This document shows, piece after piece, positions 21,489 to 44,634 of a stretch of DNA of 64,000 bases. This DNA comes from a virus (lineage: Duplodnaviria; Caudoviricetes). Position 1 is the first letter of the stretch; each line of letters begins with the position of its first letter. The notes under the pieces are model-generated. The model made no database searches and was not told where the DNA came from. It was given only the letters and a program-made list of their open reading frames with translations. A program made the position numbers and the translations under genes. The stretch lies in IMG/VR virus record IMGVR_UViG_3300031993_000033, positions 32,001 through 96,000 of that record; one strand, given 5' to 3'.

Positions 21489-22091
21489 GTGGATTACGAC
21501 ACGATTTACAATGGCACAACAATAGATGGTGTTAAAGCCATTACAGATGCTTTAGAACTATCAGCATATGAACATAAAAAATTAGAAAGGCATCAGAAAC
21601 TAAGTCAGCTTGCAGATGAAGATGTAGCTTATACAATCAGAAAGAACGTCAATTATTTATGGGTTGATTATTACTTTGATGATGCAAAAGAATGGCTTGA
21701 TATAAGAACTCAAAAATACGATAAGCGTAAAAAGTATAAGGAAAAAGATGCGTATGAATACCTTGTAAATGAAATCAAAGAAATTTTTCAAGTTGATACT
21801 TGCGAGATAATTAGAATGTGCTATGAAGGATATGAACAGTATTCCAGATGGATAGAATTTACAACCGATAGTGATTATATATTTCATATGACTATCCCAG
21901 TTGTGAAAAGAATCACGCCTAAACTTATGTCTTATGTTTATTATGGCAAGGTTACAATTGGATATTATGTAGGCGAAAATTATAGAAGAATATGTGGGGC
22001 TTCTTATAATACAACAGAATTAAAACCAATTATGGATGAAATTCTAACATCTGAAGAATACAAAAAGCATTTGTCAAAGATGAAAGAATAA
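21489..22091 (+). CDS. hypothetical protein
   Basis: AAGGAGG SD, GTG start; flanked by junction sites 21458 and 22081. Confidence 0.7.
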   Translation: MDYDTIYNGTTIDGVKAITDALELSAYEHKKLERHQKLSQLADEDVAYTIRKNVNYLWVDYYFDDAKEWLDIRTQKYDKRKKYKEKDAYEYLVNEIKEIFQVDTCEIIRMCYEGYEQYSRWIEFTTDSDYIFHMTIPVVKRITPKLMSYVYYGKVTIGYYVGENYRRICGASYNTTELKPIMDEILTSEEYKKHLSKMKE

Positions 22092-22162
22092 TTTTATCGG
22101 TAAAATAACGACGTAGAATAGCCAAAAAGTGGCTCTAAAAATTACATGAAATTTCACTTTTA
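22081..22162. repeat. complete composite element: core site - 14 nt - ACGTAGAATAGCC..TGGCT motif - 12 nt - core site
   Basis: TGAAA-GAATAA-TTTTA (22081-96), ACGTAGAATAGCCAAAAAGTGGCT (22111-34), TGAAA-TTTCAC-TTTTA (22147-62); partial copies with the same spacings elsewhere. Confidence 0.7.
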
Positions 22163-22170
22163 TGAGGAGG

Positions 22171-22578
22171 ATGAAGATGAGTGAACTCACATTGGACGAA
22201 GCCATAAAGCATTGCCTTGAAGTGGCGGAGCAGAATGAAATAGATTCAATAACGTACAAGAACTGCAAAGAAATCAAGACCAATATGTATGAAAAGCTAC
22301 TCGCAGAAAAAGTGGAGAATGACTGCTTAGAGTGTGCCGCAGACCATAGACAGCTTGCAGAGTGGCTTAATGAGCTTAAAGAAGCAAGAAAGCTATTGAC
22401 CGCCACAAAGTACAGGGTGAAGCATGAAGAATGGGATATGCACGGAGAGCATTACATAGGCGATTATGCGTTATGTCCTAACTGCAATAAATGTTTTACA
22501 AATATCTATAACGGCAAAGCAGCTCCAGTTGTTACATTCTGCCCTGACTGCGGTCAGAAGATAGACTGGAATGAATAA
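22171..22578 (+). CDS. zinc-ribbon hypothetical protein
   Basis: CPNC...FCPDCGQKIDW. Confidence 0.7.
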   Translation: MKMSELTLDEAIKHCLEVAEQNEIDSITYKNCKEIKTNMYEKLLAEKVENDCLECAADHRQLAEWLNELKEARKLLTATKYRVKHEEWDMHGEHYIGDYALCPNCNKCFTNIYNGKAAPVVTFCPDCGQKIDWNE

Positions 22579-22621
22579 AACGTGTCTTAGACGGCAAAGA
22601 CGAATTTGAAACAAAGGAGAA

Positions 22622-22888
22622 ATGAAAATGGCTGAAAGTTGGAATGATATATTTGGTGGACAATTTGCCAAACCAGATGTTAAACATGATAAACTAATTG
22701 CAAAAGCAGTTGAGTGTTACACCGAAAAGCTTGAAGAAGAAAATAAGGTGTTGAAAGATATTATAAGGCAGATAGATGATGCTTTTATGTCCTTTAACGG
22801 TAAGAGCAAGTCTACTGATGATATAATTAATGAGATTATTGATATTCTGAAAGTTTATAGAGATGCGTTTAGGGAGGAAGCACCATGA
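22622..22888 (+). CDS. hypothetical protein
   Basis: AAGGAG SD. Confidence 0.65.
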   Translation: MKMAESWNDIFGGQFAKPDVKHDKLIAKAVECYTEKLEEENKVLKDIIRQIDDAFMSFNGKSKSTDDIINEIIDILKVYRDAFREEAP

Positions 22889-23259
22889 AAGAGTACTTAG
22901 AGCTTGAAAGGGTGCTTGATGATAGTCATATCATCACAGTACAAACAAGGGACTATGGCAGTTTAGAGGTTGTGCCTGTTGAATACCTTGCAAATTTACC
23001 AACCGTAGAACTACAAACCATAAAAGATGTAGTTGTACCAAAACTTGAAAAACATAACATAAAACGTGGTTATCCTGATATGACCGAGGGAGAAGTAGCT
23101 GCTTATATATTAGGATTCAACGAGCATGAGAAGCTTAATATGGGGCATTGCTATATTGATAATGAGGGGTACGAAAGATGTTCTGTATGTAATGAGCATG
23201 AAACAGGTATGAGATATGCCTCATTCTGCCCGAGATGCGGCGTCAAGCTGAAACACTGA
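22885..23259 (+). CDS. zinc-ribbon hypothetical protein
   Basis: CSVC...FCPRCG. Confidence 0.65.
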   Translation: MKEYLELERVLDDSHIITVQTRDYGSLEVVPVEYLANLPTVELQTIKDVVVPKLEKHNIKRGYPDMTEGEVAAYILGFNEHEKLNMGHCYIDNEGYERCSVCNEHETGMRYASFCPRCGVKLKH

Positions 23260-23276
23260 AACAAGGAGAACTAACA

Positions 23277-29795: not shown

Positions 29796-32700
29796 ATGAT
29801 GATTATGCGAAAGTATGTTAATTACCACAAACACGATCATATTTCCTCTTTTCTCACCCCCGACACTCATATAAAGGCAGAAGAATATGTTAAACGTGCA
29901 GTAGAGTTGGGCGATACAATGTATTTCACAACTAATCACGGCACAGGCGGTGATATATTTGAGGCAAAAACCTTGTGCGATAAGTATGGTCTGCGCTGTA
30001 TGTTTGGCATTGAGGGCTATATAGTCGCCAATCCTTTAGAAAAGGACAAATCTAATTACCACATTATCATCATACCGCGCACCGATGTGGCTCGTAAGAA
30101 AGTCAATTATGTTAGCTCTCATGCTCATATTGACGGTTATTATTACAAGCCCCGTATCTTCATTGATGATTTACTGGCATTGGATAAGGACGACATATAT
30201 CTGTCTACAGCCTGTGTCGCCGGTCTTTTAAAGACTGATGATGCTATTGAGAACATATTTCAGCCGTTAGTACGGCACTTTGGTGAGAATATGTTTGTTG
30301 AAGTACAGGCTCATAATGTAGAAGTGCAGAAACAGCATAATATCAAATGTCTTGAAATAGCACAGCAGTACGGGTTAAAACTTATCGCCGCCACAGATAG
30401 CCACTATATTTATCCAGAGCAAGCGATTGAACGTAAGGCTTACTTAGAGGGCAAAGGGCTTAATTATGGCGACGAAGATGAGTTCTTGCTTGACTATCCT
30501 GACGGCAACACTCTCTATCAAAGATTTATAGATCAAGGTGTTTTGTCACCACGACAGATAGACGAAGCTATGAACAGCACTTTTGTCTTTGAGAGTTGTG
30601 AGGATATTCAGCTTGACAAAGAGATTAAAATGCCTACGATATATTCAAATCTTACACCACAAGAGCGAGTTGATGAACTGCGCAAACACGTTTACAAAGC
30701 GTGTGAAAAGACTTGCATAGAAGAAAATATATCCGAAGCCGATAAGCCAAAATATATTGCCGAGATAGAGGATGAGTTAAAAACTGTTGCTGATACAATC
30801 TCTATCAACACGGCAGACTACTTCTTATTTAATGAGAAGAATACAGACCTTGCGGTTAATAAGTACGGTGGTATTCTTACAAGAACAGGCAGAGGCTCAT
30901 GTGGAGCTTATTATTTAAACAAGCTTTTAGGTATGACACAGATTGATATGCTCAAATCACCTGTTAAATTGTACGCGAGCCGCTTCATGTCAACTGCGAG
31001 GCTGTTGGAGAACAGAGCACTCCCAGACATAGATTTTAACGTAGTATCGCAAGAACCGTTTCAGAAAGCCTCTAAAGAGCTACTTGGCGAACACGGTTGT
31101 TATCCTATGATAGCTTACGGCACAATGCAAGAGGGTGAAGCCTTTAGAAATGTTTGCCGATCCCACGGTTTGGCTTTTGATGAGTTCAATGATGTTGCTA
31201 AAAATATTGAGAAGTATGCCGATAACAATAAGTGGAAACCGATAATCGAGGAAAGTAAGCGATATGTAGGTGCGATAGTATCTGCTTCGGTTCACCCTTG
31301 CGCTCATATTCTCGATAACAAAGACTTGCGTTATGAGTATGGTGTCGTAAGAGTAGGTGACAATTTATGTGTTATGATAACATCGTCCGAAGCAGACGAA
31401 TACAAAATTTTGAAAAATGACTACTTGATTGTTTCTGTTTGGAAGTTAATCTCTGAAACCTTTGAGATGATAGGTATGCCTATTATGAGCATACAGCAGC
31501 TCAATGAAGCTCTTGACGATAAGACATTTGAGCTTTTTAAAAAAGGACTGACCGCTACACTTAATCAAGTCGATGGAGATTGGGCAACTTCACTAATGAA
31601 ACAATATCAAGCAACTAACGTGAGAGAGTGTGCAATGTTCACAGCGGCTCTTAGACCGTCATTTGAATCGTGGCGTGATATGTTCATATCAAGAACCAAG
31701 TATGACACGGGCTGTCCACAGTTTGATGAAGTCTTAAAAGAGACTGGCTCGTTCATACTTTTCCAAGAAAACCTTATGCAATACTTTGAATGGCTCGGTG
31801 TATCACCTGCCGAATCAATAGGGCTTATAAAGAAAATCAGCAAGAAGAAAATAAAGCCCGAAGATTTTAGCAAGTTGGAGGATAGGTTGCACGAGAATTG
31901 GATTAAACAGGTCGGCAATGATGATAAGTTCCAAGATATATGGAATCTCGTACAAAGCTGTATGTCATACGGATTTGCCGCGCCTCATGCGGTAGCCACA
32001 GCCTACGATATGTTGTATGGCGCATATCTCAAATCTCATTATCCATTAGAATATTATACGGTTTGCTTTAATAATTACGGCTCGGACGAAGATAAGACAG
32101 CTTCTCTTACAGGCGAATTGCCGAGTTTCGGTATCATCTTATCTCCTATCAAGTTCCGTCATTCCTCAGACCGCTACACCTGTGACAAGTCCACCAACAC
32201 GATCTACAAGTCCGTCAGCTCGGTCAAGTTCCTTAACTCAGCCGTGGCGACTGCGCTCTACGATATGCGAGATCAGCAATTCAGTTCTTTCCTCGACTTT
32301 CTCCGCGTGAACCCTTGCAACACCCGTCAGACTGAAATCCTTATCCGGTTGGACTTCTTCAGCGAATTTGGCGGCAGCGCAAAGCTCCTTGCAATATTCG
32401 ACCTATTCCAAAAGCTGTTCAAACGTGACGGTGGCGAATGGGTAAGCAAGTCGCAGATTAAAAAGACTGCGATAGAACGGTTCACCATAGAGCAACTTAA
32501 CCGACTGGCGACCAAAGAGACAGCAAGCGCGTATCAGTTTGCCGACTTCGGCGTTCTCATAGAGGACTACGCGGCAAGTCTGCCGAATACGGATATACCC
32601 GCCGTGGAGAAGATAGAAGCCCAGCTTGAATACTTGGGCTACATCGCGGCAAGTGGCAAGGAGAGTGAGCGTAGAGTTGGCTACGTCCGCACGGTCTATC

Positions 32701-32915: not shown

Positions 32916-32919
32916 GGTA

Positions 32920-32948
32920 TTGACATTCTAATATTTATGTGTTATAAT
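32920..32948 (+). promoter_or_regulatory. sigma-A-type promoter
   Basis: TTGACA-N17-TATAAT with TG extension. Confidence 0.8.
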
Positions 32949-33019
32949 AGTAATCAGAGGGTAAGGCAACTCGCCCTCTGGTATTTTTTTACATTTTAAA
33001 GTCTAAAAGGAGTGTTAAT

Positions 33020-33844
33020 ATGGAGTTTAAAGTTGGAGACAGAGTGCGTTATGTAGTTCAAAGAGACATTGATAATGTCGAAGTTGGTGAAGTAGGCATT
33101 ATTCGTGGCATTTCTTCAGGTGGTGATTATGCAGTTGATTTTGAAGAAAGTGGTTATAAACATAGCTGCGGTGGTCTTTGCCAAAATAATCATGGTTGGT
33201 GGTGTAGGGGAGATACGCTTGAACCAGTAGCTATTAGATCCGTGTTATTCCCGAATGTGGAGTATGTGTTTAATGAAAAACAAGCCGAAGAATATGCAGA
33301 GAGATTAAATAAAGAGTTAGCAGAACATTTTAACGCATTTTCAAACGACGGTATATCGGCAAAAAATGGAGGTAAAAATTCAATGAAATTTACATTTTAT
33401 GTAACAGAAGGAACGAGAGTGGATAAGAGTTGCAACGGCACTATCCCGACAATGACAACAAATATTGAGTTGCTTAGTGGCAATGTTTTTGATAAGGTCA
33501 CTACCGTTAAGGGTTCTGCAACTTGTGATAAGGCAGATTATGATGAAAGACAGGGTGTTCTTGAAGCTCTTGCGAATGCAATTTGTGGAGGTAATTTTTA
33601 CAAAGCATACGCCGAAGCTGTCAAATTGAATAGATGTGAAGATGAATTATCACGCACTTGTATCTACTGTGGCAAGGTTCTTAATACAGTAGAAGAAAAA
33701 CAGGAACACGAAGCATGGCACGTTGAGCGTCGTAAGGCAAGACACGAGCGTTATCTTCTCCGCAAGAGAGCTAAAGAAATTGCCTTTGAAGAAGCAGCTC
33801 AGAAGCTTGCAAAAGAGATAATCGCAGAGGATAACAAGAAGTGA
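33020..33844 (+). CDS. hypothetical protein (SH3-like N-terminus; possible second start at 33383)
   Basis: FKVGDRVR..G.VG...V.F pattern; internal GGAGG + ATG. Confidence 0.7.
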   Translation: MEFKVGDRVRYVVQRDIDNVEVGEVGIIRGISSGGDYAVDFEESGYKHSCGGLCQNNHGWWCRGDTLEPVAIRSVLFPNVEYVFNEKQAEEYAERLNKELAEHFNAFSNDGISAKNGGKNSMKFTFYVTEGTRVDKSCNGTIPTMTTNIELLSGNVFDKVTTVKGSATCDKADYDERQGVLEALANAICGGNFYKAYAEAVKLNRCEDELSRTCIYCGKVLNTVEEKQEHEAWHVERRKARHERYLLRKRAKEIAFEEAAQKLAKEIIAEDNKK

Positions 33845-34149
33845 TAGTCTTAATATTTTCAATTCTCGGCAGCGTATTCAGCTTGGGCGGTAATGTACTT
33901 ATCGCCCATAAGAAACGCTCTGGCTGGTGGATATGGATATTAGGGAACATAGCGTGGTTGGGAGTAAACTTTCTCGGCACTATGAATATTCCTATGGTAG
34001 TAATGTATATATTCTATCTTATCACAAATATTGCAGGGTATATTGAATGGGGTAGGAAGTCCGATCTACACAAAGCCATTGATGAATGCAACGAGAAATT
34101 AAAGAATAAACCTAAGTTTGACTTTTCTGATGTAAAGACAAGACATTAA
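33841..34149 (+). CDS. PnuC-like small membrane protein
   Basis: Three TM segments, GW.IW..GN..W pattern, G...W at the end. Confidence 0.55.
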   Translation: MIVLIFSILGSVFSLGGNVLIAHKKRSGWWIWILGNIAWLGVNFLGTMNIPMVVMYIFYLITNIAGYIEWGRKSDLHKAIDECNEKLKNKPKFDFSDVKTRH

Positions 34150-34358
34150 AGTTTGATTTTATTCGACTTGTAAGGCGTTATCTCAATGCTTAAATCGTCT
34201 GCCACCTTGTATTTATACAGCTTGTGAAGTTCACCATCGGCTGTAAATCCGCAGACGAAGTGGTTTTCAAGCCAATACTTGCCTTCCTCTATCAGCAGAG
34301 GATAACCTAAATCGCTCCACATTTGAATCATCTCTTTGAAGATGGGTTGCATTATCAT
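34146..34358 (-). CDS. 5' part (SD plus 70 codons) of the PAPS-reductase-like gene, currently inverted
   Basis: Lone - strand ORF with AAAGGAG SD in a + operon; inversion at the flanking repeats fuses it in frame to 34418-35485. Confidence 0.8.
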   Translation of the reverse strand: MIMQPIFKEMIQMWSDLGYPLLIEEGKYWLENHFVCGFTADGELHKLYKYKVADDLSIEITPYKSNKIKL

Positions 34359-34418
34359 TCTCCTTTCACTGGGAAATGCCTATTCTACGTTGCTAAATTG
34401 GCAATAAAATCAAACTTT
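34148..34418. other. invertible DNA segment bounded by perfect 16-bp inverted repeats
   Basis: AAAGTTTGATTTTATT (34148-34163) / AATAAAATCAAACTTT (34403-34418). Confidence 0.8.
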
Positions 34419-34492
34419 CGCAACAATTTGAGACTTGGCAGCAGACCATAGCAAGGCTCAGTGGGGAACTTGATGACAGAATTGCAGACTCA

Positions 34493-35485
34493 ATGAGCGT
34501 TATCAACAAGGCGATACAGGACTATCCGAATCACAAGAAAGTAGTATTTACATCTACAGGTAAAGACAGCATGGTAACTCTTGATTTGGTAACTCGTGTT
34601 TTACCTGATGTGGGTGTTCACTTCAATAACACTACTCTTGATACAGGCGATACCTATAAAATGGTAAAAGCTCATAAAGACTGGACAATTATCAATCCCG
34701 ACATTGGGTTCTACAAATACATCTTCAAAGAGCATTTCATTCCCACAAGATTCAGCCGTGGTTGCTGTACAGTATTCAAGGAAGGTAAGAGCATAGAATA
34801 CTTTGATAGTGAACCACAGATGCTTTTCTTTATGGGCGTGAGAAATGACGAATCAGCGCAGAGAGCAGACCGACAGGATATATCGCACAATCCAAAGTGG
34901 GGAGATCGTGATTGGTTTAGTTGCTTGCCTATAAGAAAGTGGAGTGAGCTTGACATATGGCTCTATATTCTTAAAAACGGCATTGAAATAAATCCTAAAT
35001 ACCGTAAGGGATATAGTAGAGTTGGGTGTTCAGTGGCTTGCCCGTATTACACCAAGTACACTTGGGTATTAGATAAGTATTGGTATCGCATGGCGTATGA
35101 CCGATGGCGCAGCATCCTGCGCAAAGTCTTTGCGCAGGAGAATCGCTGGACTAAGCTGAATTGCACTATAGACGAATATGTAAACGGAGCTTGGAATGGT
35201 GGTTTACTTAGACCAGAACCAACAGAAGAAGTTGTGACAGAGTTTATGGAGCACAAAGGACTTGACAACTATGATACGGCTTTGCAATACTTCAACAAGA
35301 CTTGCGAAGTGTGCGGTAGGAACGTAAGACAGAATGATGTGCTTGCAATGAATCTGAAACTTCTCGGCAGAGGAACAAGCAAGATTTACTGCAAGAAGCA
35401 TCTGAAAGAACTTTGTTGCTTAGATAATGAGGCATGGGATAATGCAGTAGCAGACTTTAAGAGGCAAGGCTGTGCTTTGTTTTAA
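34493..35485 (+). CDS. PAPS-reductase family protein (3' part), C-terminal Zn finger
   Basis: STGKDS PP-loop, RGCC..FK, GVR.DES..R, PIRKWS..DIW.YI, Y.KGYSRVGC..CP; no SD at 34493. Confidence 0.85.
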   Translation: MSVINKAIQDYPNHKKVVFTSTGKDSMVTLDLVTRVLPDVGVHFNNTTLDTGDTYKMVKAHKDWTIINPDIGFYKYIFKEHFIPTRFSRGCCTVFKEGKSIEYFDSEPQMLFFMGVRNDESAQRADRQDISHNPKWGDRDWFSCLPIRKWSELDIWLYILKNGIEINPKYRKGYSRVGCSVACPYYTKYTWVLDKYWYRMAYDRWRSILRKVFAQENRWTKLNCTIDEYVNGAWNGGLLRPEPTEEVVTEFMEHKGLDNYDTALQYFNKTCEVCGRNVRQNDVLAMNLKLLGRGTSKIYCKKHLKELCCLDNEAWDNAVADFKRQGCALF

Positions 35486-35553
35486 ATTTACAAGACAACA
35501 AATTAGCGGTAATGATTAACCAAATAAAAGTTGAGTTTTAAGGAGGAATAATA

Positions 35554-36690
35554 GTGAGTATTAAAGGCTACAAAGTGTTCAACCCTGACTGGACTTGCAG
35601 AGGTTTTCAGTACGAGGTTGGCAAAACTTTCAAGCACGATGGCAATATTGAGATGTGTGGTGCAGGATTTCACTTCTGCCGGAAGGTCTCAGATTGCTTC
35701 AATTATTACGGCTTTAACAGCAACAATAAGGTTGCAGAAGTCGAAGCTATCGGTAATGTTGAGACTAAAGGCGATAAATCCGTCACAGATGAAATCGTAA
35801 TTTTAAGGGAGCTTACTTGGCACGAGGTTCTTGATTTAGCCAATACAGGAAAGGACTGTACGGGCAATCGCAACAGCGGTAATCGCAACAGCGGTAATTG
35901 CAACAGCGGTAATCGCAACAGCGGTGATTACAACAGCGGTAATTGCAACAGCGGTAATCGCAACAGCGGTGATTACAACAGCGGTAATTGCAACAGCGGT
36001 GATTACAACAGCGGTGATTACAACAGCGGTAATTGCAACAGCGGTAATCGCAACAGCGGTGATTACAACAGCGGTAATTGCAACAGCGGTAATTGCAACA
36101 GCGGTGATTACAACAGCGGTAATTGCAACAGCGGTAATTGCAACAGCGGTGATTACAACAGCGGTGATTACAACAGCGGTAATCGCAACAGCGGTGATTA
36201 CAACAGCGGTAATTGCAACAGCGGTGATTACAACAGCGGTGATTACAACAGCGGTAATTGGAACAGCGGCAATCGCAACAGCGGTGATTACAACAGCGGT
36301 AATTGCAACAGCGGCAATTGGAACAGCGGTGATTGGAACAGCGGTGATTTCTCTACTGGCTTTTTTAATTCAATTGAGCAACCGTTATGCGCTTTCAACA
36401 AGCCATTAGATATTGACAGAAATGCTTTTAATAGCAACTTAGCTGTAAGAGCTATGGATTGGAAGTATGAGAACGACTGGTGGATTTACAGTGAGAATAT
36501 GACGGCGGAAGAAAAAGAAGCACATCCTGAACACGAAACAACTGGCGGTTATCTCAAATCGGTTGATTTCAAAACAGCTTGTGGTATTATGTGGGATAAT
36601 ATGACAGAAGATGAAAGAGTTGCAGTCAAGGATATTCCTAATTTTGATGCAAGTGTGTTTGAAGAAATTACTGGCATCAAGGTTGTTTGA
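35554..36690 (+). CDS. pentapeptide-repeat protein
   Basis: KGYKVF..DWTCRGFQY..GFHFC domain followed by 32 G(N/D)xNS repeats. Confidence 0.85.
   Translation: MSIKGYKVFNPDWTCRGFQYEVGKTFKHDGNIEMCGAGFHFCRKVSDCFNYYGFNSNNKVAEVEAIGNVETKGDKSVTDEIVILRELTWHEVLDLANTGKDCTGNRNSGNRNSGNCNSGNRNSGDYNSGNCNSGNRNSGDYNSGNCNSGDYNSGDYNSGNCNSGNRNSGDYNSGNCNSGNCNSGDYNSGNCNSGNCNSGDYNSGDYNSGNRNSGDYNSGNCNSGDYNSGDYNSGNWNSGNRNSGDYNSGNCNSGNWNSGDWNSGDFSTGFFNSIEQPLCAFNKPLDIDRNAFNSNLAVRAMDWKYENDWWIYSENMTAEEKEAHPEHETTGGYLKSVDFKTACGIMWDNMTEDERVAVKDIPNFDASVFEEITGIKVV
35863..36342 (+). repeat. 15-bp coding tandem repeat, 32 units
   Basis: GG(T/C)(A/G)AT(CGC/TGC/TAC/TGG)AACAGC units. Confidence 0.95.
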
Positions 36691-36718
36691 AAGACGAATT
36701 TCAAACAGTTAGGAGGAA

Positions 36719-36991
36719 ATGAAAATGGCTGAATATCATGTTGGTATAGGCTTTGCGGGTACTATATACGCTGGAACACTCACCAAGGATAAAAAGCGTT
36801 GGATAAATAAATCTGATGTTACCGATGAAGTTGTTGCCGCTTTTTATGCATGGTTGCAAGAGCAGTATGAAGAAGCCGCAGAAGAAACAGAACTTGAAAG
36901 TGGTCAGAGCTTAGAGAGAACTATTAGTTATCCTAACTCAGAATATGAGATAGTTTTTAGGAAGAAAAGGGACGGTGAACAGAATGACTGA
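36719..36991 (+). CDS. hypothetical protein
   Basis: AGGAGG SD; IYAGTL....W..KSDVT. Confidence 0.7.
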   Translation: MKMAEYHVGIGFAGTIYAGTLTKDKKRWINKSDVTDEVVAAFYAWLQEQYEEAAEETELESGQSLERTISYPNSEYEIVFRKKRDGEQND

Positions 36992-37169
36992 TGAAGAAAC
37001 AAAACTAATGGAGAGCATAGTTGATAAGCTGATAGCGGATAAGAAAGACCGCTCAGCACACAGTTATAACGACTATACCGATGATTCGGAAAGGCTAATA
37101 ATATTAACTATTGCAGAAATCAGATTTTTGTATAGCCATTTTACCGATGAAGATATTGACGAGTATTGA
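36984..37169 (+). CDS. hypothetical protein
   Basis: Coupled ORF. Confidence 0.6.
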   Translation: MTDEETKLMESIVDKLIADKKDRSAHSYNDYTDDSERLIILTIAEIRFLYSHFTDEDIDEY

Positions 37170-37196
37170 ACGAATGAAACGTGTCTTTTATGTGAG

Positions 37197-37412
37197 GTGA
37201 AAAAGATGAGAGATATGTGGTATATAGGTTCTCCACCGCCTGAACGTGAACATTATCTTGTTACAGATGACAGTGGCGAAATACAAATTGGGTATTGGAC
37301 TAATTATTCTCCTATTCTCGGAGATGAGTCTGATGTATATCGTTGGGTAGGATTAAAACAATATACTCACGTTGTAGCATGGCGTTTCCTTCCAGAACCA
37401 TACAAAACTTGA
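37197..37412 (+). CDS. DUF551-like protein
   Basis: YLVT...VVAW..LPEPY. Confidence 0.7.
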   Translation: MKKMRDMWYIGSPPPEREHYLVTDDSGEIQIGYWTNYSPILGDESDVYRWVGLKQYTHVVAWRFLPEPYKT

Positions 37413-37449
37413 AATATGCCTTTTATTAGATTAGAGAGGAGAGATTAAA

Positions 37450-37995
37450 ATGCCTTTAAATGTTGGGTATTTAACTTGTGACCGCACGGCGGCAGGAGAT
37501 GAAGTATACACTCCCTACTATGCGGTTGATCCTCTGCTTGAGTTTATCCCAAAAGATAAGACGATTTGGTGTCCGTTTGACGAGGAATGGTCGGCGTTCT
37601 ACCAGACATTCAAGCGGGGGGGGTATGACGTAGTTAGAAGTTCTCTTGCTGAAGGTCAAGACTTCTTCAATTATGAACCTGAGAAGTGGGACATAATGAT
37701 AAGCAATCCGCCTTTTAGTAAAAAGGACGATGTGTTGCAGAGAGCTTTTGAACTCGGTAAACCTTTTGCAATCCTTCTGCCTTGCAATAGTATACAGGGC
37801 AAGAAGCGGTTTAAAATATTTCAAAACGAGATTCAGATGTTGTGCTTTGATGCAAGAATAGATTATCACACTAATGGCAATATGACTACATACACTAAGG
37901 GCAACCACTTTGGATCGGCATATTTTTGCAGAGACTTCCTTCCGAGCAAATTGGAGATGCGAGAGCTGCACAAATATGAAAAATCACTAACGTAA
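37450..37995 (+). CDS. small adenine methyltransferase-like protein
   Basis: DEVYTP, IWCPFD, GQDFF, ISNPPFS; in-frame G8 at 37616-37623. Confidence 0.8.
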   Translation: MPLNVGYLTCDRTAAGDEVYTPYYAVDPLLEFIPKDKTIWCPFDEEWSAFYQTFKRGGYDVVRSSLAEGQDFFNYEPEKWDIMISNPPFSKKDDVLQRAFELGKPFAILLPCNSIQGKKRFKIFQNEIQMLCFDARIDYHTNGNMTTYTKGNHFGSAYFCRDFLPSKLEMRELHKYEKSLT

Positions 37996-38058
37996 AATAG
38001 CCAAAAACAGGCTATAAAAACTGGATAAAATAAATCTTTTATGCGAAAGGAAGATGTA

Positions 38059-38796
38059 ATGAGTAATATACAGTTATTTCAAGGCGACTGCTTTGAGCAT
38101 CTCAAAGATTTGCCCGACAACAGCGTAGATTTAATCCTTTGTGACCTCCCCTATAAGGAGACAGGCAATAAATGGGATAGGTCATTCGATTTAGAAAGAG
38201 TGTGCCACGAGTTTGAACGTCTGATTAGAGAGGACGGTTGTATTGCTCTTACAGGCACGTTCAGGTTTGGAGTACAGTTGTTCAATCTTATGCCACACCT
38301 CTACAAATATGATTGGGTATGGGAGAAAGACAATGGAACAAATGCTCCTAATGTGAATCTTCAACCATTCAGAATACACGAGTTCGTGTTCATCTTTGGC
38401 AAGGGCAGAGTAACAAATGGCACAAGAACACCTATGAAGTATTTTCCTCAAAAGACAGATGGTACACCGTATTGCCAGAAGTCGGGCAGAATGAGCGACA
38501 ACTGGAAAGGCGGTTTAGGAACTATTGTAACAGACAATAAGGACGGCAAGCGTCACCCTAAGACAATACAGAAGTTCACAAGAGATAAAGGCGGATTTCA
38601 CCCCACACAGAAGCCAGTAGCCTTACTTGAATATCTTATTAAAACTTACACAAGAGAAGGTGACTTGGTTTTGGATTGCGTTATGGGAAGTGGTTCAACT
38701 GGTGTGGCGGCTAAAAGTCTTAACAGAGACTTCATCGGTATGGAGCTTAATGAAAAATATTTTGAGATTGCAAAAAACAGAATCGAAGCAGTCTGA
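38059..38796 (+). CDS. N4-C/N6-A DNA methyltransferase (beta class)
   Basis: GDC, DLILCDLPY, HPTQKPV.LL, VLDC.MGSGSTG. Confidence 0.9.
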   Translation: MSNIQLFQGDCFEHLKDLPDNSVDLILCDLPYKETGNKWDRSFDLERVCHEFERLIREDGCIALTGTFRFGVQLFNLMPHLYKYDWVWEKDNGTNAPNVNLQPFRIHEFVFIFGKGRVTNGTRTPMKYFPQKTDGTPYCQKSGRMSDNWKGGLGTIVTDNKDGKRHPKTIQKFTRDKGGFHPTQKPVALLEYLIKTYTREGDLVLDCVMGSGSTGVAAKSLNRDFIGMELNEKYFEIAKNRIEAV

Positions 38797-38883
38797 ATTT
38801 GCCTATTCTACGTAGGTCAAAACTGAATAAAACGGTTCTTTTATGTGATTGCAAAATAATAAATTAGTGATAAGGAGAGAAAA

Positions 38884-39747
38884 ATGAAAGTATTAAGTCT
38901 TTTTGACGGCATAAGTTGTGGAATGGTGGCACTTGAAAGGGCGGGCATTCCAGTAGAAAAATATGTTGCATATGAAATTGAGCCAAACGCTATAAAAGTA
39001 AGCGAAAAAAATTATCCTCAGATTGAGCACAAAGGAGATGTTACAACAGCGGATTTTAGAGAGTACGCAAATTTTGATTTACTTATTGGCGGTAGTCCGT
39101 GTCAGTCTTTGAGCATCGTACAGAGTAAGACAAGACAGAATCTTGATGGTAAAAGCAAATTATTTTTTGAGTTTGTAAGGGCTTTTGAAGAAATGAAGCC
39201 AAGATATTTCTTGTTTGAAAATGTGGCAAGTATGAAGGATGAATGCAAACAGGTTATATCTGAATGTTTAGGCTGTGAGCCAATCTTCATAGATAGTGCA
39301 GATTTCTCTGCTCAAAGTAGACCTCGCTATTATTGGACAAATATACCTGTAGATATGATGTATGAGAAATCTAATAAGGTTCTTGCAGATATTATGGAAA
39401 CGAATGTTGACGAAAATTTTTTCTACAATTATCCGTTGACGAATATTGATATGAGTAAACAAGTGTGTGCGATAATGGATTTTAAAAATCACGATATTCA
39501 CAAAAGAATTTTTAATCCTGCTTTTAAGTGCCATACTCTTACAACTTGTGGCGGTGGTAATACTCAAAAGAAAGTAATGGATAATGGCAGAGCAAGAAAA
39601 CTCACACCTCTTGAATATGAAAGATTACAAACGCTGCCAGATGAGTATACGAGCTGCGTTTCAAACACAGCAAGATACACAGCCATAGGTAATGGTTGGA
39701 CAGTTGATGTAATCGCTCATATTTTAAAGGGATTGGGTAACGTATAA
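38884..39747 (+). CDS. C5 cytosine DNA methyltransferase
   Basis: LSLFDG, GGSPCQ, ENV, Q.R.R, RKLTP.E.ERLQ, GNGW. Confidence 0.92.
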   Translation: MKVLSLFDGISCGMVALERAGIPVEKYVAYEIEPNAIKVSEKNYPQIEHKGDVTTADFREYANFDLLIGGSPCQSLSIVQSKTRQNLDGKSKLFFEFVRAFEEMKPRYFLFENVASMKDECKQVISECLGCEPIFIDSADFSAQSRPRYYWTNIPVDMMYEKSNKVLADIMETNVDENFFYNYPLTNIDMSKQVCAIMDFKNHDIHKRIFNPAFKCHTLTTCGGGNTQKKVMDNGRARKLTPLEYERLQTLPDEYTSCVSNTARYTAIGNGWTVDVIAHILKGLGNV

Positions 39748-39833
39748 TAGCCGAAAAGTGGCTCTATTTATCCAATAAAACTTTACTTTTATTGACTGAC
39801 AGAGTAACAAATTAGAAACAAGGAGGAATTTAA

Positions 39834-40799
39834 TTGAAGTTGACAATGATTGAATTATTTTCTGGCATAGGTGCTCAGATCAGAGGATTTAAAAACTCTG
39901 GTTTATTTGACACTGAGGTAATAGCAACATCAGAGATTGACAAAGATGCAATCGTGAGCTACGCTGCCGTTCACTGTGGACTTACACCAGAACTTATTGA
40001 GAACTATGATTATCCGCCCGTAGATGAAATGGTGGAGTACCTTGAAAGTCGTAACATTGGCTATGTCTTTGAGAAGAACAAGGCTTATGACTGGCAGAAG
40101 AAACGCAACAGTGCAGACTTAAAGAAGTATTATCTGGCATCAGTTCTTTCTAAGAATATGGGAGACATATCAAAGATAGAAGAATTGCCTTATGCAGACT
40201 TTGTAACATACTCGTTCCCATGCACCGACATCAGCATCGCTGGTCAGATTCAGGGCATTGAACGTGGTAAGACACGAAGCGGTTTGCTTTATGAAGTAGA
40301 ACGCTTACTCGCAAAGGCTAAAGAGACAGACACTCTGCCGAAGTTCTTACTTCTTGAAAATGTAAAGAATCTTGTATCACAGAGATTTAAGCCACAGTTT
40401 AATGAGTGGTGCGATTATCTCAGTGAGATTGGTTATAACACTTATTGGCAGATAGTCAATGCAAAGGATTGTGGCATACCTCAGAACCGGGAACGCGTAT
40501 TTGCTGTAAGTATACGCAAGGATGTAGACACTGGTAAGTTTGAGTTTCCACAGGCATTTGATACGGGCATACGTTTATTCCATGTTCTTGACTTTGATGT
40601 GAATGAGAAGTATATTCTCACATCTGATGCTGCTGGTAAGGCACTTGATGAGATGGCTAATAACGGCACACTCTCAGAGGAAGAAGAACTATGGAATGAG
40701 CTGTATGAGACACGCAATGACTTCCCTAATTACGGCATTATTTGCAATCAGCCTATCTATACATCTAACGATGTCACTATAGGGGGGCAGTTCCGATGA
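39834..40799 (+). CDS. C5 cytosine methyltransferase, N-terminal part (motifs I-VIII)
   Basis: ELFSGIG, SFPCTD, ENVKNL, PQNRERVF; stops just after G6 at 40782-40787. Confidence 0.88.
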   Translation: MKLTMIELFSGIGAQIRGFKNSGLFDTEVIATSEIDKDAIVSYAAVHCGLTPELIENYDYPPVDEMVEYLESRNIGYVFEKNKAYDWQKKRNSADLKKYYLASVLSKNMGDISKIEELPYADFVTYSFPCTDISIAGQIQGIERGKTRSGLLYEVERLLAKAKETDTLPKFLLLENVKNLVSQRFKPQFNEWCDYLSEIGYNTYWQIVNAKDCGIPQNRERVFAVSIRKDVDTGKFEFPQAFDTGIRLFHVLDFDVNEKYILTSDAAGKALDEMANNGTLSEEEELWNELYETRNDFPNYGIICNQPIYTSNDVTIGGQFR

Positions 40800-40895
40800 A
40801 TGACCAGAACGGATATTGTCGCACACTTAAACAGCAGTATGCTAAAACAGCTATTCAGAATTTAAAGGCACATTTGGTGCAACAGGAGTAGTTCA

Positions 40896-41039
40896 ATGGA
40901 AATAAAATATGTGGGACGAGTCCTTCCCTCTACTGGTAAGCAACATCAAAATCAAGAAGTAGCCAGTGGGGGGGGTGCAATGTGGTCACTCAAATCAACA
41001 GACTACAAAGGAGTTCCGAAAGTGTTGGTGAAAAAATGA
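40896..41039 (+). CDS. TRD-like mini-gene M1 (G8, in frame)
   Basis: MEIKYVGRVLPSTGKQHQNQEVASGGGAMWSLKSTDYKGVPKVLVKK; GGAG SD. Confidence 0.65.
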   Translation: MEIKYVGRVLPSTGKQHQNQEVASGGGAMWSLKSTDYKGVPKVLVKK

Positions 41040-41170
41040 ACGTAAAACTGCTAATGACAATGCCTAATATGTATGAACATAATGGGCGGTTGTATTCCGT
41101 AGGGGGGTATGTGTACTCTATCCACGAGAGAACACAAAGATCCCTGTAAGATACTAATAAGAAAGGTAAG
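41036..41170 (+). pseudogene. TRD-like mini-gene M2 (G6, out of frame)
   Basis: MNVKLL...RLYSVGG then shifted frame MCTLSTREHKDPCKILIRKV; G5 or G8 restores; end approximate. Confidence 0.55.
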
Positions 41171-41175
41171 TAAAG

Positions 41176-41341
41176 ATGAAAAATCAGATAAGAGTGGCGG
41201 TGGCATTGCCAACCAATTACAGTGAGCAAGGCATTGTCGTAAGCGGGGGGGGGTATTTCTAAGACAATACTTTCCAGAGATTACAAAGATGCCAAGAAGA
41301 TATTGATAAAGAGGGTTAAGAAATGCCAGACAAATACATAA
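41176..41341 (+). pseudogene. TRD-like mini-gene M3 (G9, out of frame)
   Basis: With G8 reads MKNQIRVAVALPTNYSEQGIVVSGGGISKTILSRDYKDAKKILIKRVKKCQTNT. Confidence 0.6.
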
Positions 41342-41496
41342 CCATAGGGGGGGTGGACATGACTGTGAATAAACCTTGCCCTATGCAGTATGCAAGTTGT
41401 ATTTTAACAAGATATGACAACGGAGTTAGCAATCAACAGAAAGCAAGAACTGGGGTGCTTCTAAAGAAAGTCAGAAAGGAAGATAAAAATGAGTGA
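41323..41496 (+). CDS. TRD-like mini-gene M4 (G7, in frame)
   Basis: MPDKYITIGGVDMTVNKPCPMQYASCILTRYDNGVSNQQKARTGVLLKKVRKEDKNE. Confidence 0.65.
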   Translation: MPDKYITIGGVDMTVNKPCPMQYASCILTRYDNGVSNQQKARTGVLLKKVRKEDKNE

Positions 41497-41981
41497 TGTG
41501 CACGATCTCTTATCTCCCGATGAAAGTAAAGATTACATAAGGGTAAAACAAGCTACGAAGCAAGGATATATCCTTTGTGAGAATGGTGGAGTGGCTGACC
41601 TATCCTATCCAAATTCAAAGCTGCGTCGTGGCAGAGTTCAGAGGGGGGGGGCAAACCTGCCCTACTCTCACCGCAGGTAATTGCAATATATACAGAATTG
41701 AAAGGAATGATAGTATGAACGTTGAAGATTGGGCTATCCGCAAATTAACTCCTACCGAATGTTGGAGACTGATGGGTTTTACTAATGAAGATGTAGAAAA
41801 GTGCAAGGCGGTAGGTATGAGTGATACTCAGCTCTACCGACAGGCTGGCAACAGCATCGTAACAAACTGCATTGAACTGTTAGCAGAACACCTTTATAAA
41901 GCACAGTATGATAATGACTATGAGTGTTATGACGAGAAGTTCTCCAATGTAGACAGACAGCTTGAATTTTCTTTTCAGTAA
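41489..41981 (+). CDS. module M5 plus C5 methyltransferase C-terminal part (motifs IX-X); frameshifted at G9; second start at ATG 41715
   Basis: QATKQGY..ADLSYPNSKLRRGRVQ | G9 41643-51 | QTCPTLT...IRKLTPTECWRLMGF..QLYRQAGNSIV. Confidence 0.8.
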
Positions 41982-41995
41982 CCCCTTTCACTTCC

Positions 41996-42154
41996 TTGCC
42001 AAAACTGGTGGGGGGGGTAGGAGAGAAGAATTATGGCACTCAATACCATCAGCAGCATAGAATATATAGTGGCTGTTGTGTAGGTATGTGTCATTGTTCA
42101 AATATCAGTGGAGGTAGTTATCACTACGCCTTTAAGGAGATAAAAAGTGAATGA
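41996..42154 (+). CDS. TRD-like module M6 (G8, in frame; start uncertain)
   Basis: PKLVGGVGEKNYGTQYHQQHRIYSG..GMCHCSNISGGSYHY; frame open from 41966, no clear SD. Confidence 0.5.
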   Translation: MPKLVGGVGEKNYGTQYHQQHRIYSGCCVGMCHCSNISGGSYHYAFKEIKSE

Positions 42155-42338
42155 ATTAAAACAAATAGCCGAACTCAAAATTCCACAGTGGACGGAGTGT
42201 CGGCGCAGAATATACACTACGGGGGGGGTATCTCCCACATTGAATGGCATAGGCAGAGGTGGCAACACTGAGCCTAAAATGCTTATAAGGAGCAAACATG
42301 AAGAACGAGATAAAAGTGATAGTAAATCTGCCGATTAA
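42147..42338 (+). CDS. TRD-like mini-gene M7 (G8, in frame)
   Basis: RRRIYTTGGVSPTLNGIGRGGNTEPKM; AAGGAG SD. Confidence 0.7.
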   Translation: MNELKQIAELKIPQWTECRRRIYTTGGVSPTLNGIGRGGNTEPKMLIRSKHEERDKSDSKSAD

Positions 42339-42456
42339 AGGCATGGATGTTATCAAGCGTTGTTACAGTGGGGGGGGTATTTCTCCTTCACTCACTACAA
42401 TGCAAGGTGGGCAGCGAGAACCCAAAATTTTACAACGTAGAATAGCCAAAAAGTAG
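42298..42456 (+). CDS. TRD-like mini-gene M8 (G8, in frame)
   Basis: MKNEIKVIVNLPIKGMDVIKRCYSGGGISPSLTTMQGGQREPKILQRRIAKK; AAGGAG SD. Confidence 0.7.
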   Translation: MKNEIKVIVNLPIKGMDVIKRCYSGGGISPSLTTMQGGQREPKILQRRIAKK

Positions 42457-42492
42457 CCCTAAAAAAGCAATAAAAGATTCGTTTTAAGTGAG

Positions 42493-43401
42493 GTGAGTAA
42501 TGTGATTTTCTTTCGAGAACGAGAAGATTACAACAAGGTTATCTCTGTTAAATTGGTGATTCCTTGTGGCTGTAATGCGAAGTGCCCGTTCTGCTACAAC
42601 AAAGATAAGCCTGTAGTACAATATGATATAAAAGGTTTTTTAGATAACTTTATCCCGTCTTTAGAACATCTCTTAAATGAAATAGGAGACAAGAATCCAG
42701 TATCTCTTGATATTACAGGTGGTGAGCCTACACTTGATGTCGATTTGTTATCACTTGTATTGATTAAGCTAAGAGAGTTCCACATAAAGGATAAAGTGTT
42801 GAGAGTTACTATGACAACTAATGGCACTAACCTTTATCAGATACCGATTGAGTTAATGAGAGATGTTGTGGATTATGTAAACATCTCAGTTCACGATTAT
42901 AGACAAGCAGAGCGAGAGAACATAATGCAAATTCATACGCCAGCTTTAGCCTATAAAAGAATTATCTCTCGATTAAACTCTGTTGGTATTACTGTATCGG
43001 CGGTAGCTGTTATTTTTCGTCCGATTGAAAACTTTAATCGGTGGCGAGATAATTTTATCAATTGGGCGCAGCAACAAGGTTTTATTTCAGTAAGGTTTAG
43101 ATGCGATGTATTTTGGCGTTATAAAGGTTATTTCACCAACTATATGTTTGATAGCAAAAAGGAAGATCAATTTGATATTATCAATTACGAGCATACATCT
43201 GATTCATGGTGGTGCAGATTAAGACGTAAAGACAGAATGAGAGTGTTCTTTCTGCAAGGAGTAGCAGATACCACGAAGTATACCAAAGGCATTGAATATG
43301 TCATTCACGATGACGGCAAATGTTATTGTGATTTTTACAAGAGAACGCCTATTGACAAATATGAATATGAGATAGGTAAAATTTATGATGCGATTAATTG
43401 A
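42493..43401 (+). CDS. radical SAM protein
   Basis: CNAKCPFC, ITGGEPT, TTNG. Confidence 0.88.
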   Translation: MSNVIFFREREDYNKVISVKLVIPCGCNAKCPFCYNKDKPVVQYDIKGFLDNFIPSLEHLLNEIGDKNPVSLDITGGEPTLDVDLLSLVLIKLREFHIKDKVLRVTMTTNGTNLYQIPIELMRDVVDYVNISVHDYRQAERENIMQIHTPALAYKRIISRLNSVGITVSAVAVIFRPIENFNRWRDNFINWAQQQGFISVRFRCDVFWRYKGYFTNYMFDSKKEDQFDIINYEHTSDSWWCRLRRKDRMRVFFLQGVADTTKYTKGIEYVIHDDGKCYCDFYKRTPIDKYEYEIGKIYDAIN

Positions 43402-43429
43402 TTAAACCTGTGTTTTATGAGGTGAAATA

Positions 43430-43804
43430 ATGAAAGATTTTTATGAAAGAGAAATCCAAGTGGGAGATATATGTGCTTTTTGGGACGGCGATCATCTTGA
43501 TAGTAGACGAATTTGGGGATATGAAGGCGACTCTGTTGAGATTTCAGACTATCACAAGACTTTAATTAAGAAAGCTAAAGAAGTTATAGACATTACTGCT
43601 ATCGAGAGACAGATACACTCAGAGACTTTTATCAATTCTGTAAAGACTCTTGATGTAAAACCTGATAGTACAGTGGTGGCGTCAATTATACCTAATCAAA
43701 TATCTTACACGGAAGCAACCAAAATGTTTGATGGTTTAAAGGCAATGTTTCCAAACAATGAGGTATCAATGGTTATGGGAGTTGATGTTACGGTTGAAAA
43801 TTAA
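43430..43804 (+). CDS. hypothetical protein
   Basis: GAGGTG SD; flanked by junction sites. Confidence 0.7.
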   Translation: MKDFYEREIQVGDICAFWDGDHLDSRRIWGYEGDSVEISDYHKTLIKKAKEVIDITAIERQIHSETFINSVKTLDVKPDSTVVASIIPNQISYTEATKMFDGLKAMFPNNEVSMVMGVDVTVEN

Positions 43805-43832
43805 ATTCTGCTTTTATGTGAAAGGAGACTGA

Positions 43833-44579
43833 ATGAGCAATATAGAATTATGGCAAGGCGACTGCCTTGAATTAATGGGCGGTATTCCAGATAAGAGTGT
43901 AGACTTGATTCTTTGCGATCTTCCTTATGGTACTACTAAGAATAAATGGGATAGCACCATTAATCTTGAATCTCTATGGGGGGCGTACAAACGCATCATA
44001 AAAGACAATGGTTGTATAGCACTCTTTGCTCAAACGCCATTTGATAAGGTATTAGGGGCAAGCAATCTTGATATGCTGAAGTATGAATGGATATGGGAGA
44101 AACCTATGGCTACTGGCAGATTGAATTGCAACTTTGCTCCTATGAAAGCACACGAGAATATATTAATCTTTTCCAAGAGTGCAGCTTGCTATGTCAAAGA
44201 CAAATCTCACGCAATGAAGTATTATCCTCAGATGACAGAGGGCAAACCTTATACGGCAATATCAGGTAGAGCCAGCACCAATTATGACACGAAATGGTCA
44301 AAGGAACAGTTGACAGTCAATCATGGCACACGTTATCCGAGAGATGTACAGAAGTTCACCCATGATAAAGATAAGTTCCACCCCACACAAAAGCCTGTTG
44401 CTCTGCTTGAATATCTCATTAAGACCTATACAGACGAAGGAGACTTAGTGCTTGACAATTGCATGGGTAGCGGTTCAACAGGCGTGGCAGCAAAGAACAC
44501 CAACAGAGATTTTATAGGCATAGAGCTTGATGAGAACTACTTTGAGATAGCTAAAAAGAGGATTGATGGTGAAAATTAA
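43833..44579 (+). CDS. N4-C/N6-A DNA methyltransferase (beta class), paralogue of 38059
   Basis: DLILCDLPYG, HPTQKPVALLEYLI, DNCMGSGSTG. Confidence 0.92.
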   Translation: MSNIELWQGDCLELMGGIPDKSVDLILCDLPYGTTKNKWDSTINLESLWGAYKRIIKDNGCIALFAQTPFDKVLGASNLDMLKYEWIWEKPMATGRLNCNFAPMKAHENILIFSKSAACYVKDKSHAMKYYPQMTEGKPYTAISGRASTNYDTKWSKEQLTVNHGTRYPRDVQKFTHDKDKFHPTQKPVALLEYLIKTYTDEGDLVLDNCMGSGSTGVAAKNTNRDFIGIELDENYFEIAKKRIDGEN

Positions 44580-44634
44580 CAGCCCGTTTTTGGCTATTTT
44601 ACGTAGGGGTAAATAAAAGGAGATGGTGTAATAT

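Follow-up and report, generated by a model that had tools for sequence, protein, structure and literature searches.

The window, a 64,000-nt stretch of a 104.7-kb phage genome (G000), contains two short repeated elements at its gene junctions. One is an 18-bp junction palindrome, ATRAAA-N6-TTTTAT (the core), and the other is the 13-base word ACGTAnAATAGSC (M). We found seven copies of M in the window against 0.41 expected by chance, a number that was reached in no shuffle, and there was no copy in the remainder of the genome. As a control, M was read backwards, which gave no matches. The first-pass annotation had listed the same seven copies, and all were recovered; the last one, recorded there as 44581-44604, takes in an adjoining repeat half and occupies 44592-44604.

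All seven copies lie in the non-structural region, and every copy of M is intergenic and located 20-75 nt upstream of a start codon. At 22080-22163 (plus strand), an ORF-less junction unit consists of a core (22080-22097), a 13-nt linker, M (22111-22123), a 22-nt tail and a second core (22146-22163), followed by the ribosome-binding site (RBS) of the next gene. At 34378-34421 (minus strand), M (34378-34390) is joined by a 13-nt linker (34391-34403) to a core (34404-34421), which is the right inverted repeat of a 271-bp invertible segment between perfect 16-bp inverted cores (34148-34418). On the minus strand, this M leads into an RBS and then the first exon (68 codons) of a PAPS-reductase-like gene. 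The unit at 37990-38042 (plus strand) comprises M (37990-38002), which contains the stop codon of a truncated methyltransferase (37450-37995), a 22-nt tail with a 6-bp stem, a core (38025-38042) and then an N6/N4 methyltransferase gene. Four nucleotides past the methyltransferase stop codon lies the reverse M at 38801-38813, with a 13-nt linker, a core (38827-38844) and a C5 methyltransferase gene (unit 38801-38844, minus strand). The stop codon of that C5 methyltransferase (38884-39747) is contained in the next M (39740-39752, the TATAAT allele), which is followed by a 22-nt tail and a core at 39775-39792 (unit 39740-39792, plus strand). At 42435-42487 (plus strand), M (42435-42447) has a 22-nt tail that is unable to form a hairpin, a core (42470-42487) and then a radical-SAM gene. 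The last unit (44581-44619, minus strand) contains the reverse M, a small stem (44581-44595), an 8-nt linker and a left core half (44613-44619); the stem and M lie directly 3' of a methyltransferase stop codon. A TnpB (IS605 OrfB) segment (44620-45851, plus strand) is located within the spacer of this core, and the uninterrupted site is present in contigs L142, L151 and L176. In addition, a putative degenerate copy of a variant M allele was found at 33348-33360 (plus strand) inside a 274-codon frame, followed by an A-run, GGAGGT and ATG.

The arrangement of M and core is strict. The core either ends 13 nt before the ACGT end of M or starts 22 nt past its other end, and the 13-nt linker, M at the centre and the 22-nt tail form a 48-bp ORF-less junction module. 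In G000, the ACGT-side core was 13 nt from the copies at 22111, 34378 and 38801 and 8 nt from the copy at 44592, where the linker is 5 nt shorter and the core is cut by the TnpB insertion. The first-pass annotation had measured gaps of 12 and 14 nt to a 16-bp core; these hold and correspond, with the 18-bp core, to 22 nt after and 13 nt before M, and the downstream core was at its fixed distance in all four forward copies. It had also named loss of this spacing in other genomes as one outcome that would refute it. Across 74 distinct contexts, the core-to-M gap was 13 nt in 26 of 31 cases (8 nt in four), and the M-to-core gap was 22 nt in 22 of 26 (23 nt in two). The spacing is conserved, and that test therefore does not refute the tie between M and the cores. 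The core-M-core unit at 22080-22163, already noted as complete and gene-less, recurred in seven other contigs.

The proposed 24-nt extension of M was likewise conserved in sequence. Only about half of the subfamilies have its hairpin, and the copy at 42435 does not: the tail stem measures 4-6 bp in these subfamilies, is absent or broken in the rest, and has weak folding energies. A terminator was rejected because of these short stems, inconsistent T-runs and the stemless half of the subfamilies. No relevant Rfam match was obtained in 20000-47000 at E values up to 1, so a known RNA family was also rejected.

We then collected about 100 further copies of M from related viral and metagenomic contigs, all of them intergenic and all adjoining a core. 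The family consists of ~100-kb gut or rumen phages, and M is restricted to one clade, whose hosts are probably Clostridia. Genomes carry one to seven copies, in an overall ratio of 66 forward to 33 reverse (~2:1), and M is missing from most core junctions. When 1037 core matches were examined at the exact offsets, M was either perfect (42-44 cases) or absent, with at most eight cases showing one to three mismatches. Position 6 is the most variable base (G/A/T), and position 12 also varies (C/G). Rare variant alleles (ACGGTATATAGCC and ACGATATATAGGC) keep ACG and ATAGSC and do not have a good hexamer. Since upstream ORFs run into M in three different frames, its conservation is not at the protein level, and a coding constraint was rejected. 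Restriction-site logic was also rejected, as ACGT is only mildly depleted (0.72 of expectation).

The flanks of M reassort. The results showed 53 left and 41 right flank clusters joined at M in 65 combinations. Homology between G000 and its relative G001 stops at the 37990-38042 unit, where the unit is conserved and the downstream gene differs. The link to methyltransferase and PAPS-reductase genes in the first-pass annotation holds for six of the seven copies here, but the neighbours in relatives also include YopX, TnpB and small ORFs of unknown kind. Comparable elements are the promoter-early stem-loop (PeSL) cassettes of T4-type phages, which have a full host-type early promoter and a terminator-like stem-loop along the transcription direction (Arbiol 2010, PMC2839356; Comeau 2014, PMC4122927). 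Like PeSL, M is a short conserved sequence, presumably regulatory, at variable accessory-gene borders, with lineage-specific variants, and insertions, deletions and replacements that distinguish close relatives have their break points there. In contrast to PeSL, its promoter-like part is limited to a -10-like core, its hairpin is inconsistent, both orientations occur, and a second, palindromic motif lies at a strict distance.

We propose, with a probability of roughly 0.4 and on sequence grounds, that M is a factor-dependent, PeSL-like transcription-control module that doubles as a crossover point. M would be a -10-type initiation site made of TAnAAT, a 4-nt G+C block and an A-run at the expected start site, and the modules are carried at accessory-gene cassette borders in this one clade. 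Every copy contains a hexamer (TAGAAT, TAAAAT or TATAAT) that resembles TATAAT and has A as its second and T as its sixth base, and TAnAAT was calculated to occur in ~2% of random 13-mers of the same base composition. Nearly all copies continue past the hexamer with AGSC and an AAAAA run, which lies at start-site distance. Of the bases in a -10 hexamer, the one that falls on the variable position 6 of M is the least constrained, in favour of this proposal. A fixed block of M, 6 nt, a GAGGTG-type Shine-Dalgarno (SD) sequence, TTAAA and ATG precedes at least five unrelated ORFs. The stretch 30000-47000 contains just two consensus sigma-A promoters, 13.8 kb apart, with four of the G000 copies between them. 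The placement of all copies between genes and shortly upstream of start codons, the perfect-or-absent pattern, the reassorting flanks and the separate 12-14-mers that relatives each repeat also favour this reading. Initiation by M is further supported at the PAPS-reductase gene, where M and its linker form a ~35-nt insert between core and RBS, whereas the RBS directly follows the core in more distant relatives. The copy at 34378 also lies within the invertible segment, as promoters of DNA switches do. The fimS-type switches and gut-bacterial invertons resemble this locus, in which M sits in a 271-bp segment between 16-bp inverted repeats with both states among relatives; here, the segment also includes codons 1-68 of the gene, and the remaining six copies of M are not part of any such switch.

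Several observations count against promoter activity. M has no -35 hexamer at 16-18 nt and no TG extension: ACG precedes the hexamer, and the -35 position is occupied by the T-rich core arm or coding sequence. The recognisable sigma-A promoters of the phage are near-consensus (TTGACA), mostly with a TG extension. Initiation at M would therefore depend on a factor specific to the clade, and the invariance of the bases on either side of the hexamer could be accounted for by such a factor as well. In the phage, no sigma factor was detected and no T7-type RNA polymerase was found, although the control for the polymerase family was uninformative. One third of the copies point against genes and are nevertheless perfectly conserved, and the variant alleles have a poor hexamer. 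A weaker -10-like hexamer that retains the two critical positions (TATTCT, TATTTT or TATTAT) is also present in the reverse complement of M, and the downstream gene could thus be served by M in either orientation. Strict distances of 13 and 22 nt to the cores would not be expected of a plain promoter. Host alternative sigma sites (sigma-H, ECF and sigma-54), compared by eye with consensus sequences, did not fit all alleles or spacings and were rejected. The first-pass annotation contained no reading of M as an expression signal. As for the second role of the module, M is the longest sequence common to otherwise unrelated junctions and may therefore act as a crossover point; crossovers between co-infecting relatives would occur there, as proposed for PeSL cassettes.

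The fixed distances on both sides of M in dozens of independent contexts could instead reflect core-directed cassette recombination, in which M would be an accessory protein-binding site of a bipartite M-core site and core-M-core an attI-like site or an empty cassette. Linkers that diverge in sequence and not in length, tolerance of both orientations, the perfect-or-absent pattern and the reassorting flanks are consistent with this. The cores do recombine: the 271-bp segment is inverted between identical inverted cores, splitting the gene, in G000 and G001, and has the intact-gene orientation in G004, L004/L135 and L188. In two genomes, TnpB segments are inserted after AAAG of the core adjoining M. 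However, M is not needed for this inversion, the one clear core-to-core recombination event, because M-less distant relatives (G007 and G008, with no M genome-wide) keep the PAPS-reductase inverted-repeat pair with co-varying arms. The absence of M from most core junctions and the M-SD-ATG block, which is hard to explain through recombination alone, also argue against such a site, and we consider it less likely than a transcription-control module.

The recombinase itself bears on the more specific claim in the first-pass annotation that M is an arm-type site. The only tyrosine recombinase of the phage likely starts at codon 51 of its ORF, behind an AAAGGAG RBS, and its orthologs align only from residue 46. 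Pfam gave only SAM-like and catalytic domains, and the ~28 residues that precede the former could not accommodate an arm-binding domain. A 62%-identical ortholog is present in M-less G008. M-bearing G002 gave no match to the G000 recombinase as query; its single gene of the Phage_integrase family is far more diverged. An arm-type site should be present wherever its cognate cores recombine, and G007 and G008 show that M is not. The arm-type role was thus not supported. As for the proposed ~80-bp non-autonomous unit, an ORF-less core-M-core unit of ~84 bp does exist and recur, and the tie of M to the cores and the reassortment of flanks at M stand. More generally, no protein co-occurred cleanly with M. 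A profile for a binding protein (in G000, G001 and G002, and not in G006-G008) returned 21 frames, about a dozen distinct genes after merging overlaps, mostly unannotated small ORFs, and no DNA-binding domain was recognised among them. An HNH-AP2 endonuclease as the reader of M was rejected, as its presence does not track M.

ORFs in integrons often end in attC. The M system resembles attI and attC in that a short core marks the cassette borders, upstream ORFs end in the site and ORF-less cassettes occur. It is unlike integrons in that no IntI-type integrase was found, most junctions are M-less and both orientations occur. Single-strand folds of M ranged from -0.6 to -9.3 kcal/mol as small separate hairpins, too weak for attC, and no long attC-type hairpin from an imperfect inverted repeat was found in them. 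It is unlikely that M and the palindrome form the bipartite site of a phage-borne integron-like system, with core-M-core as a promoter-supplying landing platform at which methyltransferases, PAPS reductases, YopX and TnpB would be acquired and exchanged site-specifically and not by chance homology.

The 13-bp asymmetric form of M, in short intergenic gaps beside stop and start codons, also recalls the stoperators of L5-like mycobacteriophages, which reportedly number 20-30 per genome, run along the transcription direction and match the operator of the repressor. M could be the operator of a clade-specific repressor or roadblock that damps transcription through accessory-gene junctions and has no promoter activity of its own. 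Its perfect-or-absent occurrence in one clade and the separate 12-14-mers that relatives each repeat would suit an operator, as would a temperate lifestyle, which is possible because every phage of the group checked has at least one Phage_integrase-family gene. On the other hand, stoperators follow the transcription direction, whereas the orientation of M is mixed 2:1 with few copies per genome, and no repressor candidate or other known binding protein was identified. No prophage of the clade was found in 185,579 species genomes, where the only true family member was a 7.9-kb contig of an Eubacteriales MAG. We regard an operator as improbable. The SAS/ESAS repeats of Cluster K mycobacteriophages are another two-tier system, in which the 13-bp asymmetric repeat includes the RBS and inverted repeats are optional (Pope 2011, PMC3203893). 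Both systems lie in the non-structural half, occur at some but not all gene starts and are shared among relatives; in ours, the palindrome is the common element by the RBS and the 13-mer is optional, and the sequences are unrelated.

Finally, the 48-bp module could be a selfish or relic ORF-less cassette, MITE-like, that spreads with cores and has no function for the phage. A gene-less unit bounded by two cores would fit, and forward/reverse M pairs flank 0.1-2.2-kb blocks in nine contexts, including a 142-bp gene-less pair in L130; a forward M also closes all three reading frames. Reverse-then-forward neighbours occur too, hence the pairs are not special. Comparison of flanks revealed no target-site duplications and only a 10/13 resemblance in G003, and TnpB was the only transposase found, with neither a Y1 transposase nor a serine recombinase detected. 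A relic should decay gradually, and intermediates are nearly absent, which makes this origin very unlikely. The same absence of duplications and transposase, with the reverse-forward pairs, led us to reject a transposon with inverted ends, and an IS605 end was rejected because TnpB itself is inserted into the core and contigs with the empty site exist.

A long-standing question is how phages acquire, lose and swap accessory genes at exact borders; to our knowledge, such junctions are well defined in sequence for only a few phage groups. This clade has a two-part junction code, a palindrome at most borders and an invariant 13-mer at a subset, which makes the question testable with ~100 natural examples, fixed geometry, visible flank reassortment and one inversion in both states. 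As a recombination site, M would indicate that phages possess a cassette system. Should M prove to be a factor-dependent promoter, a new class of promoters would be defined for phages infecting rumen or gut Clostridia, and M would mark a regulon of DNA-modification genes.

Seven copies of the 13-mer ACGTAnAATAGSC (M) were counted in the window, where chance predicts 0.41, and a search of the rest of the 104.7-kb genome (G000, a phage record of IMG/VR bounded by direct terminal repeats) found no further copy. The window spans bases 32001-96000 of this record. All copies lay within the non-structural region, which encodes a Sak annealing protein, a PD-(D/E)XK nuclease, a primase-helicase, the Pol III alpha subunit and a DNA-modification block of two N6/N4, two C5 and one truncated methyltransferase, a PAPS-reductase-like gene, a radical-SAM protein and a TnpB gene. 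The junction palindrome ATRAAA-N6-TTTTAT (core) preceded about 20 genes on the plus strand from 20.3 to 43.8 kb; its right arm adjoined the ribosome-binding site, and the stop codon of the preceding gene often lay inside its left arm. All four forward copies of M in the window were followed by a core at exactly 22 nt past the 13-mer, while in three copies a core ended exactly 13 nt ahead of the ACGT end (8 nt in a fourth). The first-pass annotation had described these fixed distances as 12 and 14 nt, which become 22 and 13 nt after correction for core length, and its core-M-core unit without a gene was recovered at 22080-22163.

Relatives were found by a pattern scan of viral contigs, after which whole records were fetched. 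The related phages G001 (99 kb) and G002 (113 kb) and the fragments G003-G005 carried one to three copies of M each, and a metagenome scan returned 84 loci with 103 copies, about 85 of them belonging to the family and the remainder being chance matches in G+C-rich DNA. In the 74 distinct contexts compared, 26 of 31 core-to-M gaps measured 13 nt and 22 of 26 M-to-core gaps measured 22 nt, so the spacing proposed from G000 held in relatives; about half of the linker bases differed at constant length. About 860 kb of loci of more distant relatives (48-65% protein identity) and three of their whole genomes, G006-G008, contained no M. Among 185,579 species genomes, one true family member was found, on a short contig of an Eubacteriales MAG. 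A Clostridia-type host is suggested by this contig and also by GGAGG ribosome sites and promoters of the TG-extended TTGACA/TATAAT type.

Read on the strand of the genes, the 99 family copies showed four arrangements: gene stop, forward M, 22 nt, core and ribosome-binding site (40 copies); core, 13 nt, forward M, 22 nt, core and ribosome-binding site, as in the unit without a gene (8 copies); core, 13 nt, forward M and at once a ribosome-binding site and ATG (15 copies); and gene stop, about 12 nt, reverse M, 13 (or 8) nt, core and ribosome-binding site (31 copies). Five copies had no core at the expected offsets, and reverse M with a core at 22 nt did not occur among the 99. Upstream ORFs entered the module, which supplied their stop codons in three different frames. 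Folds at the module were weak; about half of the subfamilies had a small stem beside M, and in large subfamilies, that of 42435 among them, it was broken.

Conservation was then measured independently of the M search pattern by scoring the 13-mer at both exact offsets from all 1037 core matches in the fetched DNA. The distribution was bimodal: 42-44 sites matched perfectly, at most eight differed at one to three positions, and the background peaked at eight mismatches, indicating that M is perfect where it occurs and otherwise missing. Variation was confined to position 6 (G 39, A 8, T 1) and position 12 (C 33, G 15). Rare variant alleles (ACGGTATATAGCC, ACGATATATAGGC and ACGCAAAATAGCC) stood at the same core offsets, at junctions in loci L113, L117, L165, L125, L128 and L160 and at G001 60571, and kept ACG and ATAGSC unchanged. 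That M is merely a selfish relic appears improbable. Relatives with one copy or none had repeated 12-14-mers of their own: G002 a 15-mer around GTACAAAATG in up to 10 copies, G007 one 14-mer in 5 copies, some as close pairs, and G006 words that were spacers of conserved sigma-A promoters.

The first-pass annotation had proposed M as a site of the recombination system, and clustering of the flanks (40 nt left and 45 nt right of M, separately) bore this out in part: 53 left and 41 right clusters formed 65 combinations, with a single right cluster paired with seven left ones and a single left cluster with four right ones. The unit at 37990 was common to G000 and G001, which diverged directly past its core, and in G003 a methyltransferase-macro-YopX block lay between forward and reverse M where G000 had seven other genes. 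The frame at 37450-37995 (181 residues) covered only positions 213-365 of a methyltransferase family 458 positions long and is therefore a truncated gene; its stop codon lay inside M, and other contigs showed this gene end and M attached to four different right flanks.

The inversion at the PAPS-reductase-like gene did not support the proposal. Perfect 16-bp inverted cores bound a 271-bp segment (34148-34418) that contains the reverse M at 34378. In G000 and G001 this segment was inverted and the gene split, its 68-codon first exon being undamaged; in G004, L004/L135 and L188 it had the opposite orientation, and one frame, 423 codons long in G004, began after core, 13 nt, M and ribosome-binding site. 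The N-terminal part of about 95 residues was in place in most homologs elsewhere, and the segment looks like a programmed switch at the 5' end of the gene. Three lineages, two of them beyond that of G000 (including L038-L049), retained the inverted-repeat pair, whose sequence co-varied, and in the L039-L043 lineage the ribosome-binding site directly followed the core. Whole genomes of both further lineages lacked M, indicating that M is an addition not needed for this inversion. G000 had a single tyrosine recombinase, whose likely start leaves about 28 residues ahead of the SAM-like domain, and neither a serine recombinase nor a Y1 transposase was found. A search with this recombinase found no match in M-bearing G002, whose single Phage_integrase-family gene was much more diverged, while M-less G008 had a 62% identical ortholog; among the relatives compared, no protein, including an HNH-AP2 endonuclease, tracked M cleanly. 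A dedicated recombination accessory site is a possible but less favored role for M.

Several other features of the genome were recorded. The TnpB segment (44620-45851) was inserted in a core spacer directly after ATAAAAG, with the uninterrupted site in L142 (177-260), L151 and L176; an 82% identical TnpB in L010 (10968-12200) also directly followed the AAAG of a core adjoining M. Because both segments end in ...ATAGAAG, their target looks like the core left arm. Certain palindromes were avoided to an extreme degree throughout G000 (GGCC 0 against 188 expected, CTAG 1 against 161; CCGG, GATC and CGCG at 0.25-0.36 of expectation). At 39834-42435, many short frames containing G6-G9 runs came after a C5 methyltransferase, and the C-terminal motifs lay on a separate piece; the arrangement resembles a multi-specificity enzyme that is broken, or switched, at poly-G tracts. 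Such tracts also open another PAPS-reductase type in L006, L054, L057 and L062. A perfect TTGACA-17-TATAAT promoter with a G+C-rich hairpin and T-run within about 10 nt downstream (32920-33000) could be a leader terminator or yield a very short RNA heading the 33-46-kb gene block. An anaerobic ribonucleotide reductase gene (50433-53396) contained an intein with a LAGLIDADG domain, and the gene for a DUF7666 plus pentapeptide-repeat protein (35554-36690) contained about 44 tandem 15-nt repeats (35758-36417).

Some features of M point to an expression signal. It contains TAnAAT, and its most variable position, 6, is the one at which a -10 hexamer best tolerates change; AGSC and an A-run follow at the distance expected for a transcription start. 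In the third arrangement a fixed block of M, 6 nt, GAGGTG-type SD, TTAAA and ATG preceded at least five unrelated ORFs, and in our own alignment the 22-nt tail of the other arrangements matched this block with the SD spoiled. A -10-like hexamer (position 2 A, position 6 T) is present in the reverse complement as well, which may explain why both orientations are retained. Against an expression signal, M has neither a -35 nor a TG extension, unlike the consensus promoters of the same phage, searches of the phage for a sigma factor or a phage polymerase were negative, the hexamers of the variant alleles are poor, and fixed core distances are not foreseen for a plain promoter. A pure operator of the stoperator kind is a rather unlikely alternative.

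The nearest described systems are the PeSL cassettes of T4-type phages and the two-motif SAS/ESAS repeats of Cluster K mycobacteriophages. In contrast to PeSLs, M lacks a full promoter and a consistent terminator, occurs in both orientations and keeps a strict geometry with a second motif; SAS/ESAS differ in sequence and in the optional element, and a visible part in flank reassortment is M's own feature. Judged from sequence, the reading we tentatively prefer, at a probability of about 0.4, is that M would act in transcription control as a factor-dependent promoter whose operator might be the core, and that crossover at M would be a by-product, as in PeSLs.
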